Below, piece after piece: positions 48,215 through 63,336 of a stretch of 64,000 nt of DNA (position 1 is the stretch's first letter; each line of letters starts with the position of its first letter). A model generated the notes under the pieces. It was given only the letters and a program-made list of their open reading frames with translations. It was not told where the DNA came from and did no database searches. Source of the stretch: Macrostomum lignano (Eukaryota); NCBI GenBank assembly GCA_002269645.1, contig NIVC01001945.1, positions 62,001 to 126,000 on the forward strand, in the 5' to 3' direction. The position numbers were made by a program, and so were the translations under genes.

Positions 48215-48955
48215 ACTACGTAATGCGCAGATAAGTGTTGATTTTTAGGCAGATTTGACGCAAAAAACGCAAATTATACTACTATCTGAAAATGAAGTAA
48301 GTAGTATACAAAAACGCTATCCTAAGCGTGATATGACAATATGTAGTCGTAATAATCCATGTGCTCATATATGTACATTAATTCCATGTACATTAATCCC
48401 TATCTATCTCAAATTGTACATTAATTCCATGTACATTAATCCATATCTCAAATGTCTATCCCCAATTCTATATGTACACTTACATTAATCTACAGTGTCA
48501 TCCCCAGCGCGCGCGCACCAACATTACATGTACAATACTACATGTACACAGAGGTGAGAATTACTAATCTCATCTACTACCAAATGAGTCAACTAACAGT
48601 GTAGCGCACATCATGTATAAGTATTTACAATGAAGATATATTTACATTTAATCAGTAGCATATTACAGGAATCGAGACATGTACACCATCACCAGCAAAT
48701 AGAATATACAGAAAATTTTACATTGTTTTTCAATATTTTTCTCTTCATAAATGATTTTAAACAGGTTTGACATGCAAAATATGTACAATAGATTTTTACA
48801 TTGGCAATTTCGCCACACGCAATGCAAAAATGTTTTATGTACATTGAATTATATACAGCAAATAGATTCTGATAAATACAGCAGTATTACAATGCAACTT
48901 ATGTACAATAAATAGATTTTACTAATTTAATATTGCAAAATGTACATTGAATTGT
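48215..48955 (+). repeat. Left terminal inverted repeat of the Polinton
   Basis: Reverse complement of 62603-63336 with a few substitutions and one 9-bp indel. Confidence 0.92.
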
Positions 48956-49939
48956 CAGACAGATTTGAATAATAGTGGTCGGAGTCTATATGTACATCGA
49001 TAGCCTCTATACTCATATCCGCTACATACCCAAAAAATTAGGTATGTACATTTTCACCCTCGGAGACCGTAAGTTGAATATGCTGATAACTTATACAAAG
49101 TCACTTATAAAATACACATACTTTCATATAGAGGCGGGCCTGTACAAACTCTCGCCAAGCGATGGGGTGGAGGTTGCGTCATCCAAGCCTCTCCCCAAGT
49201 CAGAACCCAAATGCAGGACTGCGTTGAAGCAGTGCTTTATATTTCTATATTGACAGTGTGGAGGATACAAGACCTTTAATTGGTAATTATCAACTGCTAC
49301 TGCTGTACGGTATATCCTCACCCCCCCTCGAAACTCCTATACTGAATGTTGAATCACCCTTTAACTCGGACCATAGTCAAATTCAACCCTGTTCGAAAAC
49401 AGCCACCCCTCCGATGTTTACCAGACACAGCGCAGACCCCATAGCAAATCGAGCTAAATTTTAACACTCACCCCTGTTCTCTCTGTCCCCCCTTCTAAAT
49501 GCCAAGGAATTTCGACCCTCTCTCCATTTTCAGTGTACAGACAGATCTTTCCACAGCACAGACCATATATTAAACTCAAAACCCCTCTCTTCTCCGATTA
49601 CGTCATCCATGCCGCCCCAGATAGCAAGAAACCAACTTTTAATGCACACATCAACCCCCGCGAGCAAATCCGAGTCCGCCAACCTCTACCTGCATTGACA
49701 AACCCCAGCTGCATTTTTAAATGTACACAGCCTATGAATCAGTGTCTCCACCGCATGCAATTCTGATTTACTTTGATTCTAAACTTTGTAAATTGTATAA
49801 GTCACCCTTGCGTTATACTAGAAGTAGTGAAGTCCACATATTTAAATACGTGAGGCTATTCAATTCTGCCTCTCCGCCTCCCCTGCCTTCTCACTTCAAG
49901 CTTTCAGAATTGGTCTTTGAGACGGTCGGTTTAATCTGT

Positions 49940-52396: not shown

Positions 52397-55024
52397 ATGG
52401 CATCGAAGCGTTCAGCCGCTGAAGCCGCCATTTCAACCTTGTGGGGACGAGCAGGCCCCTCACAACAGCAGCAGCACAAGGGCCGCAGGTACATCACGCC
52501 CAGAGAGAAGGCCACAGCATTCGCCAAGGAGTATGCGGCGGTAAGCAGCTACCAGATCAAGAAAAAGGACAGAGCGCTCAGAAGAAAGGTCGATCGGACG
52601 CTCAAGAGAACGCAGTCGGGTCGGAACGAGGGAGACGACATCACCTTGGAGGAGGTGCAGCATGCGCTGGACGAGTTGGACGGCGGAAAGGCGCCGGGAC
52701 CAGACAAAATCCACCCGAGGCTACTCAAGGAGCTGCCCACCGAGATGATCAAAGCGGTAGCCCAGCTGTTCCAACGCTCATGGGCGCACGCCGAAGTCCC
52801 ACAGAACTGGAGAACCGGCGAGATTGTGCCCCTGTTGAAGGAGAATCAGGTACCAGAGGCCATTGTGTCATACCGCCCGATATGTCTCACTGCGACGATT
52901 GGAAAGTGGCTGGAAAGAGTCCTGGCGAACCGTCTGAAGCACACGCTGGAAAACCAGAAACTGCTGACGGAGGCCCAAGCCGGATTTAGACAGGGCAGAA
53001 CAACCACGGACCAGGTGCTGAGCTTATGCCAGGAAATCAGCGACGGGTTTAACGATCGGAAACGGACCGTTCTGACCACCCTAGATTTCACCAAGGCGTA
53101 CGACAAGGTGTGGCGAACAGGGTTGCTCTGGAAGCTGCTGAAGAAAGGGATTGACGGCCGGATGATCAGATGGATACAAGCCTGGTTAGTCAATCGCACC
53201 AACTGGGTGCGGCTAGGCGAGGAGAAAGGCGCAGTGGTGTGTATGAAGCAGGGGCTTCCACAGGGGGCGGTACTGTCCCCCCTGCTGTTCCTGGTATTCA
53301 TCGACGACCTGCCCTCGGAATGCGGGACTACCGGCGTTCAATTCCGCATGTTCGCTGACGATGTAGCCCTATGGAGCACCGAAGAACGAGTAGGCAGAGC
53401 ATGTGCTAGAGTCCAGGAGGCACTACGGAAGGTGCACGAGTGGACCAGGGCCTGGTACCTCCCCTTGAACACTAAGAAGTGCGAGTCATGCGTCTATAGC
53501 AACAACCAAGCGGAGCGAGGAATGCGACTCGACTTGAGAATTGGAGATGACATCATCAGAACGACCTCGGCCCCCCGATACCTCGGGGTCACGGTGGACC
53601 AAAAGCTCACGTTCGCTGAACACGTGAGGATGCTATCGACGAAGGCCAGGGCGAGGACGCACCTGCTGAAGAAGCTGTGTTGCTTGGAGGGAGGTCTAAA
53701 CTTGGAGATTGCGAGGATGGCCTACCTGGCGCTAGTGAGACCGATTCTGGAGTACGCGGCCCCGGCATGGTACCCATGGCTGGCCAAGGTACACCTGGAG
53801 AAGCTGGAGAGGTGCCAGCGGGCAGCCGCCAGAGCCATTGCCGGAGTACTGGCCAGCACGCCGGTGGAAATGGTGCTGCAAGAAGCCGGGCTACCATCGC
53901 TGGAAAGCAGGCTGCAGTTCCAGACGCTGAAGACCTATGATAGCTACCGACGGCTACCAGCGGACTCGCCTAGGAATGAGATGGCCAATAGGCGCATGAA
54001 GAAGAGGCTGAAGAAGCCCAACTGGAGGCAGAAGTGTCGCGAGGACTGGACCAGACTGGCGTTACCGGAGCCGGAGCCGGAAGAGCGGAGCAGGCCAATC
54101 CCACCGTGGGTTCAAATCAGAACTAAGGTTGCCTTGGAGGAGCTCACGAACCGGCAGGCAACCGAGAAAGAGAACAAGGAAACCGCAGAGAGCTGGATCG
54201 CGAACAGAGACACCGACTACATCCTGTACACAGATGGGTCGGTGGGCAAGGACGGTAAAGGTGGAGCTGGTCTCATCATCTACCGGGGCAGCACGAAGCA
54301 GGGCGAAGCTCGAGGATCAGCGGGACAGGGATGCTCGTCCACGCAAGCCGAGATCAGGGCACTCCGTATGGCAATCGATTGGTTGGACGCGGCAGACTGG
54401 AAAACGGCCACCATCGTGAGTGACAGTCAAGCAGCGCTCCGGGCTTTCCAGGACAGATGGAAGGGTGAATGGCAGGACGTGAGGCATTGCTGGCTAAAGA
54501 TCGCGAAGTGGCCTGAAAGAACCCTGACGATGAAGTGGGTGGCAGGACATGTCGGAGTGGAAGGAAATGAGCTGGCGGACAGGCTGGCGGCAGAGGGACG
54601 AGGCGAGGAAGGTGACGTCTGGACAAGGAAAGCGGCCACTAACCACATTCGTAGAGCCCTGGAAGGCAGGATGGAGTGGAAGCACGAGAGGGCGAAGGAA
54701 ATCTACGCGAAGAAGCAGCCGGACTGGCGGAAGGAAGGAAAGTGGTGCAGAGCGGCCAGGCGCGATTTTGCCAGGTTCAGGACCGGACACCACACGGAGC
54801 TGGCGGAGTATGGTGCTCGGATTGGAGCCAGGGAGAGTGGAACGTGCCGGCTGTGCAATCTCGAGGAGGAAGGCACGGAACACGTACTGTTGAAGTGCCC
54901 AGTGATGGACAACATCAGGAGGAAGACCGGCATCACGGAGATGGGTGACTTATGCGCCATGCCCGAAGAATGCCGGGCCCTTTGGAACGAGTTCCGAGAA
55001 CGGGTTAGACTGAAGAGAGAGTAG
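52397..55024 (+). CDS. 875-aa chimeric ORF: ~27 aa of polB exon 1 fused to LINE reverse transcriptase-RNase H
   Basis: KAPGPD, YRPICL, QAGFR, LDFTKAYD, QGAVLSP, FADD; RNase H YTDGS, AEIRAL, SDSQAAL, WVAGHVG, NELADR; CRLC-x8-H-x4-C; no stops. Confidence 0.92.
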   Translation: MASKRSAAEAAISTLWGRAGPSQQQQHKGRRYITPREKATAFAKEYAAVSSYQIKKKDRALRRKVDRTLKRTQSGRNEGDDITLEEVQHALDELDGGKAPGPDKIHPRLLKELPTEMIKAVAQLFQRSWAHAEVPQNWRTGEIVPLLKENQVPEAIVSYRPICLTATIGKWLERVLANRLKHTLENQKLLTEAQAGFRQGRTTTDQVLSLCQEISDGFNDRKRTVLTTLDFTKAYDKVWRTGLLWKLLKKGIDGRMIRWIQAWLVNRTNWVRLGEEKGAVVCMKQGLPQGAVLSPLLFLVFIDDLPSECGTTGVQFRMFADDVALWSTEERVGRACARVQEALRKVHEWTRAWYLPLNTKKCESCVYSNNQAERGMRLDLRIGDDIIRTTSAPRYLGVTVDQKLTFAEHVRMLSTKARARTHLLKKLCCLEGGLNLEIARMAYLALVRPILEYAAPAWYPWLAKVHLEKLERCQRAAARAIAGVLASTPVEMVLQEAGLPSLESRLQFQTLKTYDSYRRLPADSPRNEMANRRMKKRLKKPNWRQKCREDWTRLALPEPEPEERSRPIPPWVQIRTKVALEELTNRQATEKENKETAESWIANRDTDYILYTDGSVGKDGKGGAGLIIYRGSTKQGEARGSAGQGCSSTQAEIRALRMAIDWLDAADWKTATIVSDSQAALRAFQDRWKGEWQDVRHCWLKIAKWPERTLTMKWVAGHVGVEGNELADRLAAEGRGEEGDVWTRKAATNHIRRALEGRMEWKHERAKEIYAKKQPDWRKEGKWCRAARRDFARFRTGHHTELAEYGARIGARESGTCRLCNLEEEGTEHVLLKCPVMDNIRRKTGITEMGDLCAMPEECRALWNEFRERVRLKRE

Positions 55025-58000
55025 GACCGTGGTACGGCAACGCCAACAACAACAACAACAACAGCAGCAGCAGCAACAACAGCCTCCGGCCGCAAAGAGA
55101 GGACGCCCACTAGGTGAGTCTCTGCGTGCGTAAAACTATGCTTTTAGCATTTGTAAAATCTGAATTCAGAAAAATAGGGCTGTATAATTGCTTTAGCATT
55201 TGTGTGATTAGCAAATTTTTTCGCTAGTTGAAATATGGGTTTTCTTTGAAAGCACAGCTTTTCATCTTTAGCATTCATTTTGGGTTAAAATTTCTGTAAT
55301 TGCTTTTCAGCTTTAGCATTTGTGTGATTTGCAAACTTTTCGCTTGTTGAAATATGGGCTTTCTTTGAAACCACAGCTGCTTTTCATCTTTAGCATTCAT
55401 TTTGGCTTAAAATTTCTGAATTTCCTCTTGACATAGATGTTGAAGTTGGATTTCTCAAATTCAGACCTGTTGAAATAACAGAGTTTTTGAGAATATCAGC
55501 AGCAGCAGCAGTATAGCCAGATAATACCTGTAGAGGATAGTCATAAAATTTCTGGGGTTATGTGACTAGAGAAGTAAAAACAGCAATCCTGCAGCGCGCG
55601 CGTGACTCAGCGGGGGGCGGGCAGGCGGCAGTGATAAAAATCAACCCCCGATTTTTGGGCTCAGCATGATGATGTAATCACCACAGCGGCAGGTATTCTA
55701 GCGGCGCAGTGATAAAATCACCCCCGATTTTTGGGCATGATGATGTAATCACCGCTGCAATTGTATGGGGTTTTGGCAGCAATAGCTGCTGCAGTGAGGG
55801 TTATTAATCAGACAGCTTTAAAAATCCAAAAGCGGCCGCGCGGTATTGTTGCTAGGTGTCAAGGAGGCACAATGGAGGCACGTGCTGATAGGGGGTTTTC
55901 TTAAATTTTACAATGGCTGCTGCGGCAGGATCTGTGTTATCAGGGGTCATCAATCAAACATTTTTGACAGCCTAAAGTTCGAAACGGGGGTCAATCAACC
56001 CCACATTTCTTTTGTTGCTACGTGTCGGAACGTGCCGAGTTGTGGTTTTTACAACTCACCGATTTTGTTGCTTGGGGTGGGGCGATAAAATTGCTGCTGC
56101 TGCAGGCAATCAATCAAAAAATTTTGACAGTTGTAAAATTCCAAGCGGTCAGAATTTTAGTCACCATGCGCATTTTATTGCAGATTTGGCTCAATTTCAA
56201 CCCCCGCCCCAGCCCGACACTGTCGAAGGCGATGGTAAGGAGTTGATTTTATTTCATGAGTCATACACCCACAATTCTAATTTCAAACCCTCAAATTTTT
56301 TCAGGCTTCATTGCGCGTCTTGGCGGGGCGAAAGCCCTGCCTAAATTTAGAGCTGCAGGACACGAATATGTGGTATCGTTCACAGCGGATATTGTCGATG
56401 TTCGAGACACATTCGCTAGGGTGATAACAGCTCTTTGTGTGGACCTTCAAGCAGATGATTTCGTCGCATCTAAGCTGACGGCGGACAACATGATGCTAGC
56501 CATCAACGTCCCGCCCGTCCGCCGCAGCCGCTTCACTGCAGAGCTTGTTTTCAAGCATATCAACAAGGTGCTGCAGTCGGACTCCAGCGTCTTGGGCAAC
56601 AACTTTAAATTGTTTTTGCTCAAGGCCTGGGTCCCGCGGGGCGGCTGCGGCAGCTTAGATGCGGCGGAGCGTCACATCCAGGCCAGGCATTCGACAGGCC
56701 GCAACTATATCGTCATTGCCAACCGCGATAAGCGGTGCCTCATTCGGGCGCTAGTGGTGGCCAAGGCCTTTGCCGACCTGGAGGCCAAGGCCATCACTAA
56801 GCAAACTTGGCGGACCATCAAGGCCGACTCCCCAATGCAGACGAAGCTGACTGGGGAGCTTCAGATTGCCGCCAATCCGTATTCGGTGAGTAAAAATGTT
56901 CTTGCGCATTTTAATTTGCATTTTTATTAATATACAAATGTTTTAGTCTTTATCAACCATTGCACAGGACGGGCCTTTCGGGGTTGATGTGCTCCCCCAA
57001 CTGCTGGCAGTTCTGAACGCCCAGTCGCCGGGCAGGGATTTCGGCGCCCGCGTGTACAGTGCTGAGGAGGGCAATACATGTGTGTACGCCCTGCCCGGCC
57101 GCGAAGTGCTGAATCTGCACCTAATTGGCGAACACTTTAACGCTGTTTGCAAAGTGCCGCCATTTTTCGGAGCTCGCCGCTATTGCGACCGCTGCCAGCA
57201 GCCGTATGATTGCAACTCTGCAGGGCACAAGTGCACCAACACCTGCCCTCAATGCAAAGTGCCCGGCACCGACTGCAAGAGCCTGCAGCGTGACTACAAG
57301 CGCTGCGCTGATTGTGGCCTCAAGTGCTACAATCAGCAGTGCTTCGAAAATCACCGCCGGAAAAACCGAGCCGGCAGGTCACGCTGCAGCTCAACCCGCG
57401 TCTGCCCCAAATGTGGATATGTAGAAGAGTTAAGAGTCGACCAAAAGGAGCCGGAGCACAAGTGCGGCCATGTCAAGTGCCCACTGTGTAAACAGTACGA
57501 CGAGGCCGGCTCGCATTTGTGCTTCGTCAAGGCTCCCAAAGTGAAAGCATCGACTATGCCGTACGTGTTCTACGATACGGAAACATACACGGACGAGGAG
57601 AAGCAGCATCACGTGCACCTGGTGACTGCCGTCACGTGCTGCGAGACCTGCTCCGGCCGGGCGTTTCCGCGCGAGACTTGCCGCCTCTGCAATGGCCTGC
57701 ATAGCGCCGCCAACTGTCTGACTGGCCGCGATCTGGGGGAGGAATTCTCCAATTGCGTCAGCCACTCAGACTGCGCCTGCCAAATGGCCGATTTTGTGGC
57801 TGTGGGCCCGGCCTCGCTGAATGCGTTTTTCGCCTGGCTGAGCACCACATTCCGAGGCGGCGCCATTGTTGTCGCGCACAATGCATCAGGCTACGATTCG
57901 TTTCTACTGCTTGGCGCTCTACTCAACGGCCTGGCCAAGAAGCGGCCACAAGTACTGTTCCAGGGCAGCCGGTTAATGAGCATGACGGTGGATAAATTGG

Positions 58001-61000
58001 TATTCAAAGATTCGTTAAATTTTATACCAATCCCGCTTGCGCAATTCCCAAAAGCGCTGGGGCTCGCTGACACAAAGCTGGCCAAGGGGACGTTTCCCCA
58101 CGAGTTCAACAAGCCGGCTAATTGGAACTACGTGGGCCCCTACCCGGCTATTGAATATTATGGCGGCAAAGCAAACAAGGACTATGACTCAATCTGTGCT
58201 TGGCTAGCCTCGCGACAGGGCGAGTTGTTCAACTTTAATCGGGAATATCTCGATTATTGTTTGAGCGACACAGTCCTGCTTCGCGAGGGCTGTATCAAGT
58301 ACAGGGCAATAATTGGTGAAATTTGCGACGGCCTGGAACCATTTGTACAGGCCAACACGATTGCCAGTTTGGCAATGGCCGTTTTCACCACCCGATTTAT
58401 GGAGCCCAACTCGGTCGGCGTGATTGCCCGGCAGGCCGACCAGCAATCGTTCAAGGCGCGCAAGTGGCTGACTTATTTGAATGCCACCGAATTTGGCGGG
58501 CGGCTGCGCACCTGCGACTCGACTGACGGCGAGGCTGTCATTCTTGGCCGCAAGGTGGATGGTTTTGATGAGGCGAGCAACACTGTCTTGCAGTTTCATG
58601 GCTGTTTCTACCATGGCTGCGAGCAGTGTATGCCTGATCAGGATGCTGTCCACCCACTCAAACGGCAGCCTCTGAGCCACATTCGCCACGAGACTGAGTG
58701 GTTTACTCGCGAGTTGGAGCGGCACAATTACAGTGTTCGTGTCATTTGGGAGCACGAATACGACACTGTATTGGCATCGCAGGCCGACTTTATCGCCGCA
58801 ACTGCACATCTGCGCGCTCCACTCAAGATGGAAGATGCTCTCTATGGCGGCCGCGTAGAGTGTTTTATCCCGCATGCTGTGGCCAGCGAGACTGAGACTC
58901 TCAAATATCGGGATGTGGTGAGTAGTGATACTACTGATATAGTAGAATATTTTGCAAAAATACAGTTTATGAAAATAATGTTTTATTTCAACTGGCAGGT
59001 CTCTCTGTACCCGACGGTGCAGTCAAAGGACCCGTACCCGATTGGCCACCCGGTGCAACATCCGACGCCGCAAGTGCTAGATTCTGACGCGCTGGCTAGT
59101 TACTTTGGTATTGCCAAAGTGACTGTATTGCCGCCGTCAGATTTACATATTCCGCTGCTGCCGTACAGAGTTCAAAAGAGTTCAAAAGTGCAAAAGAAGC
59201 TCTTTTTTGGGCTTTGCCGCACCTGTATGGAGCAGCAGTGTGGCGACGATTGTGACCACTCAGATGAGGAGCGGGCGCTGACTGGCACCTGGGCAACGCC
59301 GGAGCTGCGGAAGGCCTTCCAGTTGGGCTACCGACTGCAGGTGGTGCACGCGCTGGCCTACTGGACAGAGAAGCGGACCGGCCTGTTCAGTGACTATGTT
59401 AGCACCTTCCTCAAGCTGAAGGCTGAGTCGAGCGGCTCCCCCGGCATGTCGGATGAAGACAAGGCCGCCTACATTGCCGATTTCTTTGCAAAGGAGGGCG
59501 TCACGCTGGACAAGGTCGAGCCCAACCCAGGACTTCGCTTTGTAGCGAAAATCTTTTTGAATTCGTAAGTAATTATAAATTCTGTTTTTAAACGATTTCT
59601 TCTACTAACAGTAGCACTTCTTTTCACAACACACAGGCTCTGGGGCAAATTTTGTCAGCGTGACGACCTGACATCGACAGAAATAGTATCCAGCTACGAG
59701 GACTGGCTCGCCCGGCTGACCGACCCCAACCTCAAAGTCAAGGCCTGCGAACCGATTGGCAGCGAGTTTATGCTGCTAGAGTACCGGCACCGCTACTTTA
59801 ATCAGCGGCCCTTCCGGTACTCTAATGTGCCAATCGGGGTTTTTACAACCACGCAGGCCCGGCTGCGCCTGTACGAGGCCTTGGAGGGGCTCGGCGAACG
59901 GGCCATTTACTGCGACACTGACTCGTAAGTAATGCATTTGATGTAACCGCCCTTGTCGCCTGTCCGCTCCGTAGAGAGACGAACGCATGGCTAGAGGGGG
60001 CAATGACCGTAGGCTGCCTATGACCGGGCAATGACCTGACGGACCTCCAGCACCAGACTGTCCCGCCCACATGATTAGTAGCTTTGGTAGCGCTTCGTGA
60101 CCAGAGGGCCAAGGACCCACATGGACCCCACCTGTAGCCAAGGTGCAATAGTTGGTCACTCGGTCATGGTATGACCGAGTGGCTGCCACCACTCTATGTG
60201 ACCTGGCGCACCTGGATCTTTCTACCAGACCTCTCGAGGCTAGAGCCCCGCCTGGATTGGTTACCAGGGGATTTAGGCTAACAGGGGAGACGCATGCAGC
60301 CGAGTACAGGGACTCTGCTTGGGGCATGATCGGGAACTCTGGGCTCAATCCTGGAGGATTTCTCAGCAGGGGATCCTTTGTGGCTGTGAGCGAGGCTGAC
60401 TTGCGACTTTGATTACTAAGAGTAGTATGAGGCGAACATGTACTGTCTACAGTTTAGATTGCTCAGGGCGAAGGGACGCGTTAGCATGGGGTTGCAACCT
60501 TCCTACTGCCATTCTGTGCCAAGACTCGCTAATCCCTCTACTGCACGCACACGCGGCCCCGCAGCACGCACTCACAGGCGGGCTTTGCACGGGGAGAGGC
60601 CATTAGCTTACCCAAACTTCCTTATGCTTTGCCACCCCGGGAGAAAGGCTTAGCAAGCCATGAGTGAAATGATGGTGAAAGATTGAATAATGATGAAGTT
60701 AGTTAATAGTTAATAATTAGGCCCTTAGGCAAATAAGCAGGCAATTAGGCGGCTTCACTATTGAGTAAAATACAGCAAAAGATACGGTATCACAATTGGC
60801 TCAGCTCTCTAATCAGACAATGGAAAATAGGCAAACCCCGGATAAGCAAAGGCAATTAGAGCACAAATTAGTAGCAGGAACTTACCGGCAGCTGCACAGA
60901 GAGTGAGAGAGACGGAGTGACCGAGGGCGGCTGTAGGCTGCAGTCAGGCAGACGGTGAAGCGGCGATGCGCTGGAGCGACGAGGCGCTGATGTAGATCAG

Positions 61001-62583
61001 GCGATGCTGATGATGCTGGGCGGTATCAGACCGCTGGCCGATAGGCGAGCTCACTTGGGGAGCTAAGGATAACTTGGCGGTAACAGACCGCGGACCGGCA
61101 GGGATTCGTCTTATAGACGAATGGGTCAGAACTCAATCTGACAGCAAGTCCAAAGAAGGACGAGGAGAGGAACAGAGATAAACCCAGTTGAGTATTCTCA
61201 TGCCGAAATCGCTTCCTTTTATAGACCTCACAGCCGCCTCCTCAAGGTCGTTACCATGGCTCCCTCTCTCTGATTGGCTGCCGGCAGAATGACGTCAGAA
61301 TGAGTCATGATGAGAAGCATGAGACCGGCATAGCAACATGAGAAATCGGGAAATTGCGCAATCCGGAGGTGGGGTGGGGGGATAATTGGCGCAGCGGGTG
61401 GTCGCGAAAGTGTTGCGCAAGCAAACATTGAGAACAATAGGGCTGGGGTCGAGAACAAAGGAATTGGAAATCGGGGATAATTGGGGAAAACTGAGAACAA
61501 TGGAAAAGTAAACATTGGAGAAAAGGTGATAATTAGGTGCGAAAACGAGAACAAAAGAAAGAGAAAATCGGAGAAAATGTGATAATTGGTGGGGGTCGAG
61601 AGAACAAAAGAAGCAAAAACGAGAACAATAGAAGCGGAGGTGGGGTGGGTGTCACATGAGAAATTTGGGAAGGAGAACAATAGCGTGAGAAAAGGTTGCG
61701 CAAGAGAGGGGGATGAGTCATCGATGAGTCACCGAGGGGGAGAAGGGGTCACACGACTTGCGTCACCGTTTGGGAGTTTGAGAGGGGATGGGGAGACGGT
61801 GAGCACACAAAGTACTGTAAGTAGACACAGGGAAAGAGGGGACAGCGCAGGAAAAGAGTGCAGAGGGAGACAAAAAAAGAGAGGAGATAGAGAAAGTACA
61901 GGAAGAATAGGGCGGAAACAGAAGAGATAGGGTAGAGGGGGAGGTACAAAAAGGGGTAGGGGCTCCGGAAAGGCAGGTGTGGCGGCAGGAGAGACGGGAC
62001 CAAGGCAGTAGGAGGGGGGGCAGCAGAGCGGGAGTCTCCAGGCCCGGTCGGAGACCTGGCCGAGTCTCGACAGCTCTGTGCAGAGGGTGCACGGGATAGG
62101 AGGCACTTTCGAAAAAGTTCCCATGCCCTATCCCGCGACCAGAGCGTGGTTACATCACATTGATAAATTCTTTTAGAATTGAATAGTTGGCATGTGGAAC
62201 TAATTCCACAAGAGGGCCAATGGGAGCCGCCCCATGGCACGAGCCTCGGAATGTGGACCGACGAGGTACCCGCAGGCAGCCGGATGACCGACTTTGTAAG
62301 TGGAGGGCCCAAGCTCTACACTTACATTGTCGAGGATGCTGCTGGTGTCCGGAGTCAGGTCCTGAAATGCAAGGGCATCCGCCTGACTCCGGAGATTCGG
62401 GAACGCAGCGACGAATTGCGCAGTGCCCTACTACACGGCGGCTCCCTGAAACTGCCGCAGTTTCAGTTCAGGCGCGACAAGGCGTCTTGCACCATACACA
62501 CTGTTAGTATGGACAAGACGTTTCAGCGCGTCCTGACGAAACGCGTGTACGGGACCTTCAGCAGGCCTTATGGCTATAAATAA
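52397..62583 (+). CDS. polB: Protein-primed family B DNA polymerase (pPolB), 6 exons, about 1300 aa when reconstructed; exon 1 disrupted by a LINE
   Basis: Exons 52397-52476+55073-55113, 56305-56885, 56968-58917, 58999-59564, 59637-59924, ~62187-62583. ExoI FYDTET, ExoII AHNASGYD, ExoIII YCLSDT, motif A DV|VSLYP, motif B KIFLNS|LWGKF, motif C YCDTDS, C-terminal GPKLY and KCKG. Exon 1 assignment and the last acceptor are less certain. Confidence 0.88.
52477..55058 (+). mobile_element. 5'-truncated non-LTR retrotransposon (I-group-like: RT + RNase H + CCHC), (CAA)n tail
   Basis: 14-bp TSD caacagcagcagca at 52463-52476 and 55059-55072; (CAA)5 tail at 55044-55058; no endonuclease domain. Confidence 0.88.
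56305..56885 (+). CDS. polB: pPolB exon 2, N-terminal region with NRDKRCLIRAL (vOTU-like Cys motif)
   Basis: ttttcag acceptor, gtgagt donor, phase 0 into exon 3. Confidence 0.75.
56968..59924 (+). CDS. polB: pPolB exons 3-5: Zn-finger cluster, exonuclease, VSR-like nuclease insert, polymerase motifs A-C
   Basis: 859-aa ORF 56989-59568 plus exon 59637-59924; VDGFDEASNTVLQFHGCFYHGC insert. Confidence 0.93.
59939..62157 (-). mobile_element. Probable solo LTR (2219 bp) in the last polB intron
   Basis: TG...CA ends with 10-bp inverted repeat TGATGTAACC/GGTTACATCA; 4-bp TSD CATT at 59935-59938 and 62158-62161; minus-strand TATAAAA at ~61217-61223 with nearby CCAAT, TGACGTCA and TGAGTCA; no convincing ORF. 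Confidence 0.7.
62187..62583 (+). CDS. polB: pPolB last exon (C-terminal palm/thumb region)
   Basis: WEPPHGTSLGMWTDE...FVSGGPKLYTY...KCKGI...KRV...SRPYGY typical of pPolB C-termini; exact acceptor unresolved. Confidence 0.85.
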
Positions 62584-62602
62584 TGTAATCCAATTATAAC
62601 TA

Positions 62603-63336
62603 ACAATTCAATGTACATTTTGCAATATTAAAATCTATTTATTGTACATAATTTGCATTGTAATACTGCTGTATTTATCAGAATCTATTTGCTGTATATA
62701 ATTCAATGTACATAAAACATTTTTGCATTGCGTGTGGCGAAATTGCCAATGTAAAAATCTATTGTACATATTTTGCATGTCAAACCTGTTTAAAATCATT
62801 TATGAAGAGAAAAATATTGAAAAACAATGTAAAATTTTCTGTATATTCTATTTGCTGGTGATGCTGTACATGTCTCGATTCCTGTAATATGCTACTGATT
62901 AAATGTAAATATATCTTCATTGTAAATACTTATACATGATGTGCGCTACACTGTTAGTTGACTCATTTGGTAGTAGATGAGATTAGTAATTCTCACCTCT
63001 GTGTACATGTAGTATTGTACATGTAATGTTGGTGCGCGCGCGCTGGGGATGACACTGTAGATTAATGTAAGTGTACATATAGAATTGGGGATAGACAATT
63101 TGAGATAGGGATTAATGTACATGGAATTAATGTACAATTTGAGATATATAGGGATTAATGTACATGGAATTAATGTACATATATGAGCACATGGATTATT
63201 ACGACTACATATTGCCATATCACGCTTAGGATAGCGTTTTTGTATACTACTTACTTCATTTTCAGATAGTAGTATAATTTGCGTTTTTTGCGTCAAATCT
63301 GCCTAAAAATCAACACTTATCTGCGCATTACGTAGT
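62603..63336 (-). repeat. Right terminal inverted repeat of the Polinton
   Basis: Mirror of 48215-48955. Confidence 0.92.

Follow-up and report, generated by a model that had tools for sequence, protein, structure and literature searches.

Polintons or Mavericks (adintoviruses), for which classes have been defined (PMC8502044), carry a family B DNA polymerase of the protein-primed type (pPolB) with exonuclease and polymerase motifs and are bounded by long terminal inverted repeats and a 6-bp target duplication (PMC10748475, PMC8502044; for these and all other papers cited here, statements refer to the portions of text available to us). Nucleases of the HNH, GIY-YIG and Vsr types have been described in Polintons and Polinton-like viruses (PLVs) (PMC12220804, PMC10748475), homing endonucleases and group I introns in PLVs (PMC12220804), and pPolB2 polymerases bearing a Vsr or HNH domain, those with Vsr in molluscs and a marine nematode, in PMC10748475, the available text of which does not mention spliceosomal introns. 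Inteins and group I introns prefer the most conserved stretches of their host genes, polymerase motifs included, whereas spliceosomal introns were reported to show no preference for conserved sites (PMC2814812); protosplice sites and intron sliding are treated in PMC3488318. Here we describe a pPolB gene (PF03175, plus strand) within a 64,000-nt stretch of the Macrostomum lignano genome (contig NIVC01001945.1, positions 62,001 to 126,000; hereafter the window). It lies in an element which resembles Polintons in its polymerase, its long terminal inverted repeats and its 6-bp duplication, and its polymerase has a weakly nuclease-like insertion that may correspond to the Vsr domain lying between exonuclease and palm in the mollusc and nematode pPolB2. 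In contrast to the intronless genes of intact vertebrate Mavericks (PMC8097293), the gene holds five spliceosomal introns, three of which split or directly follow catalytic motifs, and in the wider family introns are placed non-randomly, in conserved DNA that includes these motifs and extends beyond them. Our literature search found no description of spliceosomal introns clustered in the motifs of a Polinton polymerase, although subscription papers, Repbase reports and supplements were mostly uncovered and a prior mention is possible.

The region analysed in detail (positions 55,025 to 62,583 of the window) corresponds to the 3′ part of the gene and is organized as follows:

56235 to 56304, plus strand: intron 1, phase 1, in the N-terminal region; GT..AG joint in one contig of run X3 only
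56305 to 56885, plus strand: pPolB exon 2
56886 to 56967, plus strand: intron 2, phase 0, where conservation is poor, at an identical position in both subfamilies; no RNA joint listed
56968 to 58917, plus strand: pPolB exon 3, with zinc fingers, exonuclease, inserted nuclease-like domain and start of motif A
58438 to 58800, plus strand: inserted Vsr-like nuclease domain with FHGC motif, a weak assignment (PHROG endonuclease, E=0.005)
58918 to 58998, plus strand: intron 3, phase 0, 81 nt, inside motif A (YRDV^VSLYP); in frame and stop-free in this copy
58999 to 59564, plus strand: pPolB exon 4, motif A to motif B
59565 to 59636, plus strand: intron 4, phase 2 in a Ser codon (TC^G), 72 nt, inside motif B; stop directly after the donor
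59637 to 59924, plus strand: pPolB exon 5, motif B to motif C
59925 to 62211, plus strand: intron 5, phase 2 within the serine codon of DTDS, where motif C ends, after the catalytic aspartates; broken in this copy, with its acceptor missing
62212 to 62583, plus strand: remnant of the last pPolB exon, its first codons missing in this copy

An initial annotation of the window had placed introns 3 and 4 within motifs A and B and intron 5 at the end of motif C, the last two in phase 2 of a serine codon, and we confirm these positions and phases, in the case of intron 5 for its start at 59925. The three motifs are intact and become complete only when read across the introns. The introns have U2-type signals, that is a GT(A/G)AGT donor, a pyrimidine tract and a YAG acceptor, and introns 1, 2, 4 and 5 each close the reading frame if retained, with an immediate stop in the case of 4 and 5. 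The shared start of introns 4 and 5, gtaagtaat, to which attention had been drawn, is indeed present in the window, but the ‘aat’ that follows the GTAAGT consensus is not conserved in many sister copies and is uninformative.

Splicing was assessed from joints in Logan contigs of sequencing runs (X labels), whose class ‘RNA’ is a program's guess; among the runs listed as containing the sequence, none is registered as RNA. Six slots of presumed RNA runs were compared, with X5 entered twice; X17 and X18 are DNA-like runs, and joint counts for the second set of runs were taken on sister locus L003. Joints with GT..AG ends were detected for intron 3 in four presumed RNA runs (X3, X5, X6 and X1), for intron 4 in two (X1 and X5), an X8 contig spanning this intron unspliced, and for intron 5 in three (X1, X5 and X8, on the sister copy). 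No joint of introns 3 to 5 was found among those listed for X17 and X18, and the automatic gene models in UniRef already hold the junctions at motifs A, B and C. The joints are unlikely to stem from an intronless copy of the family, because none of the 126 genomic exon-4 matches lies in an open frame of more than 873 codons, and the DNA-like runs have no such joint listed. The introns at motifs A, B and C are ordinary U2 spliceosomal introns, constitutive-looking and spliced out in presumed RNA contigs. On the sister locus, contigs of X1, X5 and X8 also show exon 5 joined midway (L003, position 2248) to one and the same foreign sequence, which suggests that a truncated copy is transcribed elsewhere.

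The motif introns are a general feature of the sister copies in M. lignano. Among 30 copies, introns 3 and 4 are found at the same bases in 28 each and intron 5 in 26 (canonical). The copies form two subfamilies with about 70% amino-acid identity in exon 4, a synonymous divergence (dS) of 1.6-2.3, which is saturated, and the same intron positions; compared by eye, intron sequences are unrelated both between the subfamilies and among the introns. The motif introns are about 65-125 nt long with plain GT..AG ends. Within subfamilies the ratio of nonsynonymous to synonymous divergence (dN/dS) is about 0.015-0.09 in six of eight pairs and 0.18 and 0.26 in the other two, and the gene is under purifying selection. 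Of the genome's intronless relatives, the closest (C234, ~44%) has motifs A, B and C all uninterrupted, and the ends of two database open reading frames (ORFs) from other samples, P0062 and P0063, which are 57-66% identical, coincide with the borders of exon 4. Intron 3 is in frame and stop-free in 15 of the 21 subfamily-1 copies (81 or 87 nt) and in none of the nine subfamily-2 copies; its retention in subfamily 1 would add about 27 residues to motif A. In seven of the nine subfamily-2 copies (for example L024 on C271) the first four codons of intron 3 specify the residues found at the start of the next exon, possibly the trace of an origin by duplication in this single case. Tandem duplication as a general intron origin was rejected, since 45 metagenome intron records showed no excess likeness (2.13 versus 2.32 matches in 10). 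One subfamily-2 copy has a long CA microsatellite in intron 3, and the copies on C3085 and C4430 (L008/L010 and L009/L013) contain an inverted internal segment close to where exon 3 ends.

To place these introns in the wider family, metagenome relatives, the best 80 of 321 loci found with an exon-4 query, were analysed with a custom-built spliced profile aligner, which recovers the RNA-supported Macrostomum junctions plus one unsupported in-frame call. Since Macrostomum copies receive a call of this kind at a place with no listed RNA joint, in-frame stop-free calls were dropped everywhere. Twenty forced calls were excluded from the strict set and put back in a relaxed one, and the null models omit the interval from motif A to motif B because the exon-4 query selected against introns there; L097 and L093 start at a motif, where their intron state is uninformative. 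Strict introns were called in 23 of the 80 loci and occupy 22 positions, of which 19 belong to the core. Ranked by DNA identity among 29 relatives without introns, twelve of these core positions are in the top 10%, where 2.1 would be expected, and the enrichment was significant (P<=0.045) in all 16 null variants, which include collapsing of neighbours, matching of phase and flanking bases, relaxing of the filter, and dropping of motifs A and B. When an amino-acid information measure was used instead, P was <=0.03 in 11 of 12 variants. Introns occur in seven of the ten most DNA-conserved windows, with a hint of one in an eighth from protein P0076, and protein fragments hint at further positions. 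Counting the Macrostomum sites, there are two distinct positions at motif A, five at motif B, two at motif C, three at FHGC and two at Exo II, and additional sites at YGGR and at LG after motif C, windows that are conserved among relatives. One intron site ranks in the top 2.4% by DNA identity as compared with the top 25% by amino-acid conservation. For the Macrostomum gene alone, the probability of finding at least three of five introns in equally conserved sites is 0.004-0.013, a post hoc value that is modest because the three motif introns represent one ancestral set. The integrase, ATPase and 438-aa ORF located beside intron-bearing polymerases (L093, L101 and L134) are uninterrupted, in small numbers. 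Intron placement in pPolB is therefore non-random, family-wide and broader than the three catalytic motifs. Of the targeted gain suggested by the initial annotation, the non-random placement stands and extends to the whole family; the specificity for motifs A, B and C does not, as introns follow any DNA-conserved window. A separate case is L113, a metagenome pPolB with 12 short introns (52-94 nt), several of which have GTTAA-type donors, and which probably reflects a recent burst in one host. A search of viral contigs gave no relative of the gene.

Lineages with and without introns are intermingled on a quick tree made from the exon-4 region (120 rows), on which the intron-bearing state needs six changes. 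Intron gain appears to have been repeated and independent, because positions 5, 6, 8 and 10 nt apart in an invariant motif would be hard to reach by sliding, and because the same would hold for the serine of motif B, which is split as TC^G in Macrostomum and as AG^Y in other lineages. The explanation that we prefer, tentatively and at somewhat less than even confidence, is that selection favours introns splitting conserved DNA which the element cannot recode and which a sequence-specific attacker would recognise. Conserved windows, being common to related elements and having low synonymous freedom, would be the natural targets of such an attacker, putatively a nuclease of competing elements or nuclear small RNAs of the host. 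An intron in the window would interrupt the DNA target, and the host spliceosome would restore the coding sequence and leave the polymerase unchanged. By analogy, the logic would be that of collaborative homing of phage group I introns (PMC11296320) and of intron-based interference (PMC11620839), where an intron interrupts the nuclease target in a conserved gene, with the difference that the phage introns are self-splicing and their nuclease is known, whereas in the pPolB family both nuclease and target are putative. Spliceosomal introns have likewise been described in related elements as introners of dinoflagellate PLVs, but those are young transposon copies, for which the available text reports no motif preference, while the Macrostomum introns are old and, by eye, mutually unrelated in sequence (PMC12166617). 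A wider proposal, that animal Polintons repeatedly recruit spliceosomal introns as shields against the nuclease of their competitors and that these spread by the logic of homing elements, seems to us rather unlikely; under it, the nuclease is possibly the Vsr-like domain inside the polymerase itself.

Several observations weigh against selection for interruption. Strong branches of the tree force only two of the six changes, seven of the 19 core positions lie in ordinary regions, motif introns have been lost precisely in some lineages, and one variant of the amino-acid test gave P=0.17. The metagenome introns are aligner calls without RNA support, from an aligner that misplaced calls in degraded copies. 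As to the attacker, none of 87 neighbouring ORFs (87 of 203 ORFs scanned, on short contigs) matched a homing-endonuclease family, the inserted domain is only weakly nuclease-like, with a Pfam Vsr match in relative P0036 alone (weak, E=0.03) and no Pfam match for the window piece itself, and no common sequence word, GGNCC included, was seen by eye at the three Macrostomum junctions. Small RNAs targeting spliced mRNA would not be stopped by an intron. Finally, conservation of DNA correlates with that of amino acids (r=0.79), and selection for interruption is not separable on these data from a retention ratchet. Such a ratchet, in which introns are gained anywhere, those in variable loops can be lost by imprecise deletion or be absorbed, and those in invariant motifs accumulate as only exact removal is tolerated there, is the main alternative, if a doubtful one. 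It requires no new agent, and the same reasoning is accepted for inteins and group I introns (PMC2814812). Each of the five positions shared by separate tree groups falls in a conserved window, whereas those in variable regions each belong to one lineage only. Many positions in conserved windows are, however, likewise limited to one lineage, exact losses at motifs did happen, the other genes of the three loci mentioned above are free of introns, and the same source saw no such preference in spliceosomal introns.

Spread by recombination, whereby exchange of polymerases among Polintons would copy introns only where the flanks are similar, namely in conserved windows, and without selection on the intron, is improbable in our estimation. 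Exchange of pPolB among Polintons has been described (PMC10748475) and would account for the five identical positions in separate tree groups; it would remove introns just as easily, though, and leaves unexplained the several bases used per motif and the two ways of splitting the motif B serine. Still less probable is a combination of chance and bias, in which Gly/Ser-rich motifs offer protosplice-like bases, introns are more readily detected where the sequence is conserved, and motifs A and B delimit the query. The post hoc nature of the single-gene probability, the choice of the best 80 loci with an exon-4 query and the one amino-acid variant without significance all fit this view, but the enrichment survives matching of phase and flanking bases as well as removal of motifs A and B, the aligner did find introns in variable regions, and stops, frameshifts and long gaps are absent from the alignments of most loci with introns. 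It is very unlikely that the introns are relics of self-splicing introns or inteins which homed to the motifs and decayed to spliceosomal ones. Their placement is like that of homing elements (PMC2814812), yet they are short and spliceosomal, with plain GT..AG ends and no endonuclease or ribozyme fold, and occupy several adjacent bases per motif where homing elements hold one exact site; a group I or II identity was rejected on the grounds that 20 loci gave no Rfam match and that the introns are too short. We give equally little credence to a regulatory switch tying active polymerase to host or germline splicing. Retention of intron 4 or 5 means an immediate stop, intron 3 could be read through in most copies of one subfamily, and the dependence of activity on host splicing put forward in the initial annotation is real, in that retained introns close the frame. 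Such dependence does not explain the placement, however, because an intron at any site would have the same effect; moreover, in-frame versions of intron 3 are absent from the other subfamily, length variants break the frame, and contigs cannot reveal regulation.

The element carrying the gene is delimited in the window by inverted repeats and has received two insertions:

48215 to 48958, plus strand: left terminal inverted repeat, starting ACTAC, with the 6-bp target duplication just before it; 745 bp, 98% identity to the right repeat
52489 to 55049, plus strand: non-LTR retrotransposon with reverse transcriptase and RNase H (Pfam RVT_1, RNase_H), inserted in the left arm; absent in sister copy C2757
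59939 to 62157: young solo long terminal repeat (LTR) with TG..CA ends, 2,219 bp inside intron 5, with a 4-bp duplication
62600 to 63336, plus strand: right terminal inverted repeat, ending GTAGT, with the 6-bp duplication just after it

The 6-bp duplication was found in all nine elements with both ends (two of them within simple repeats), and long terminal inverted repeats in 10 of 13 copies examined, C1131 being counted via its match to C24. Unlike Polintons, elements of the window type are 9-10 kb long (8.8-10.4 kb in sister copies without insertions), end in ACTAC..GTAGT and lack integrase, ATPase and capsid-like matches. In nine elements of the family, three integrase queries gave no tblastn match, and queries with ATPase and putative capsid ORFs gave none either; the queries did not include the protease, and such a search could fail to detect capsid homologues that are distant. 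In C2757 pPolB is the sole large ORF. By these features the element is not a complete Polinton. There are at least 109 matches to Polinton-type integrase elsewhere in the M. lignano genome. We infer that the element works like a Polinton replication module, which would be integrated in trans. The nearest named relatives of the window pPolB outside the host include oyster proteins, and the genome contains several other, apparently intronless pPolB families with open frames of 1,036-1,478 codons (L061-L079, L025 and L027).

Further observations concern the surroundings of the gene. The retrotransposon sits in frame within a small left-arm ORF, generating a 912-codon open frame. In the left arm of subfamily 2, a 178-codon ORF with a weak PC4 match (E=0.1; L057, 9429-9962, minus strand) was found in four copies, as well as in one of five subfamily-1 copies tested, and is not in the window copy; an AT-rich element is apparently nested within the subfamily-2 copy C271. 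In a metagenome Polinton (L085, 8353-8868), a TBP-family gene (Pfam E=4e-24) adjoins the integrase.

The window copy of pPolB itself is broken. The initial annotation had ended intron 5 at 62186, which turns out to be intron sequence: sister copies, where this intron is about 70-90 nt, and RNA contigs use another acceptor, and that acceptor is gone from the window. It was lost together with the first codons of the last exon near 62206-62211, and because both are missing the copy is broken and 62186 is not a splice site. The solo LTR inside the intron points to a recently active LTR family, as all 40 scored matches (of 725 candidates) are 100% identical over 563 bp, some of them paired 9-11 kb apart in direct orientation, and its depth in X17 is about 100-fold.

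The core genes of Polintons have been described as free of introns, and since 23 of the 80 relatives sampled here are spliced, surveys based on ORFs would overlook or wrongly score lineages of this kind. As the ancestral gene probably had no introns, the pPolB family offers a natural experiment in intron gain. The clustering of its introns departs from the published absence of a conserved-site preference of spliceosomal introns, and opens to test the long-standing question of whether new introns are placed or retained by selection, and what force is responsible. If their role as shields were true, spliceosomal introns would gain a direct part in the conflict between virus-like elements.

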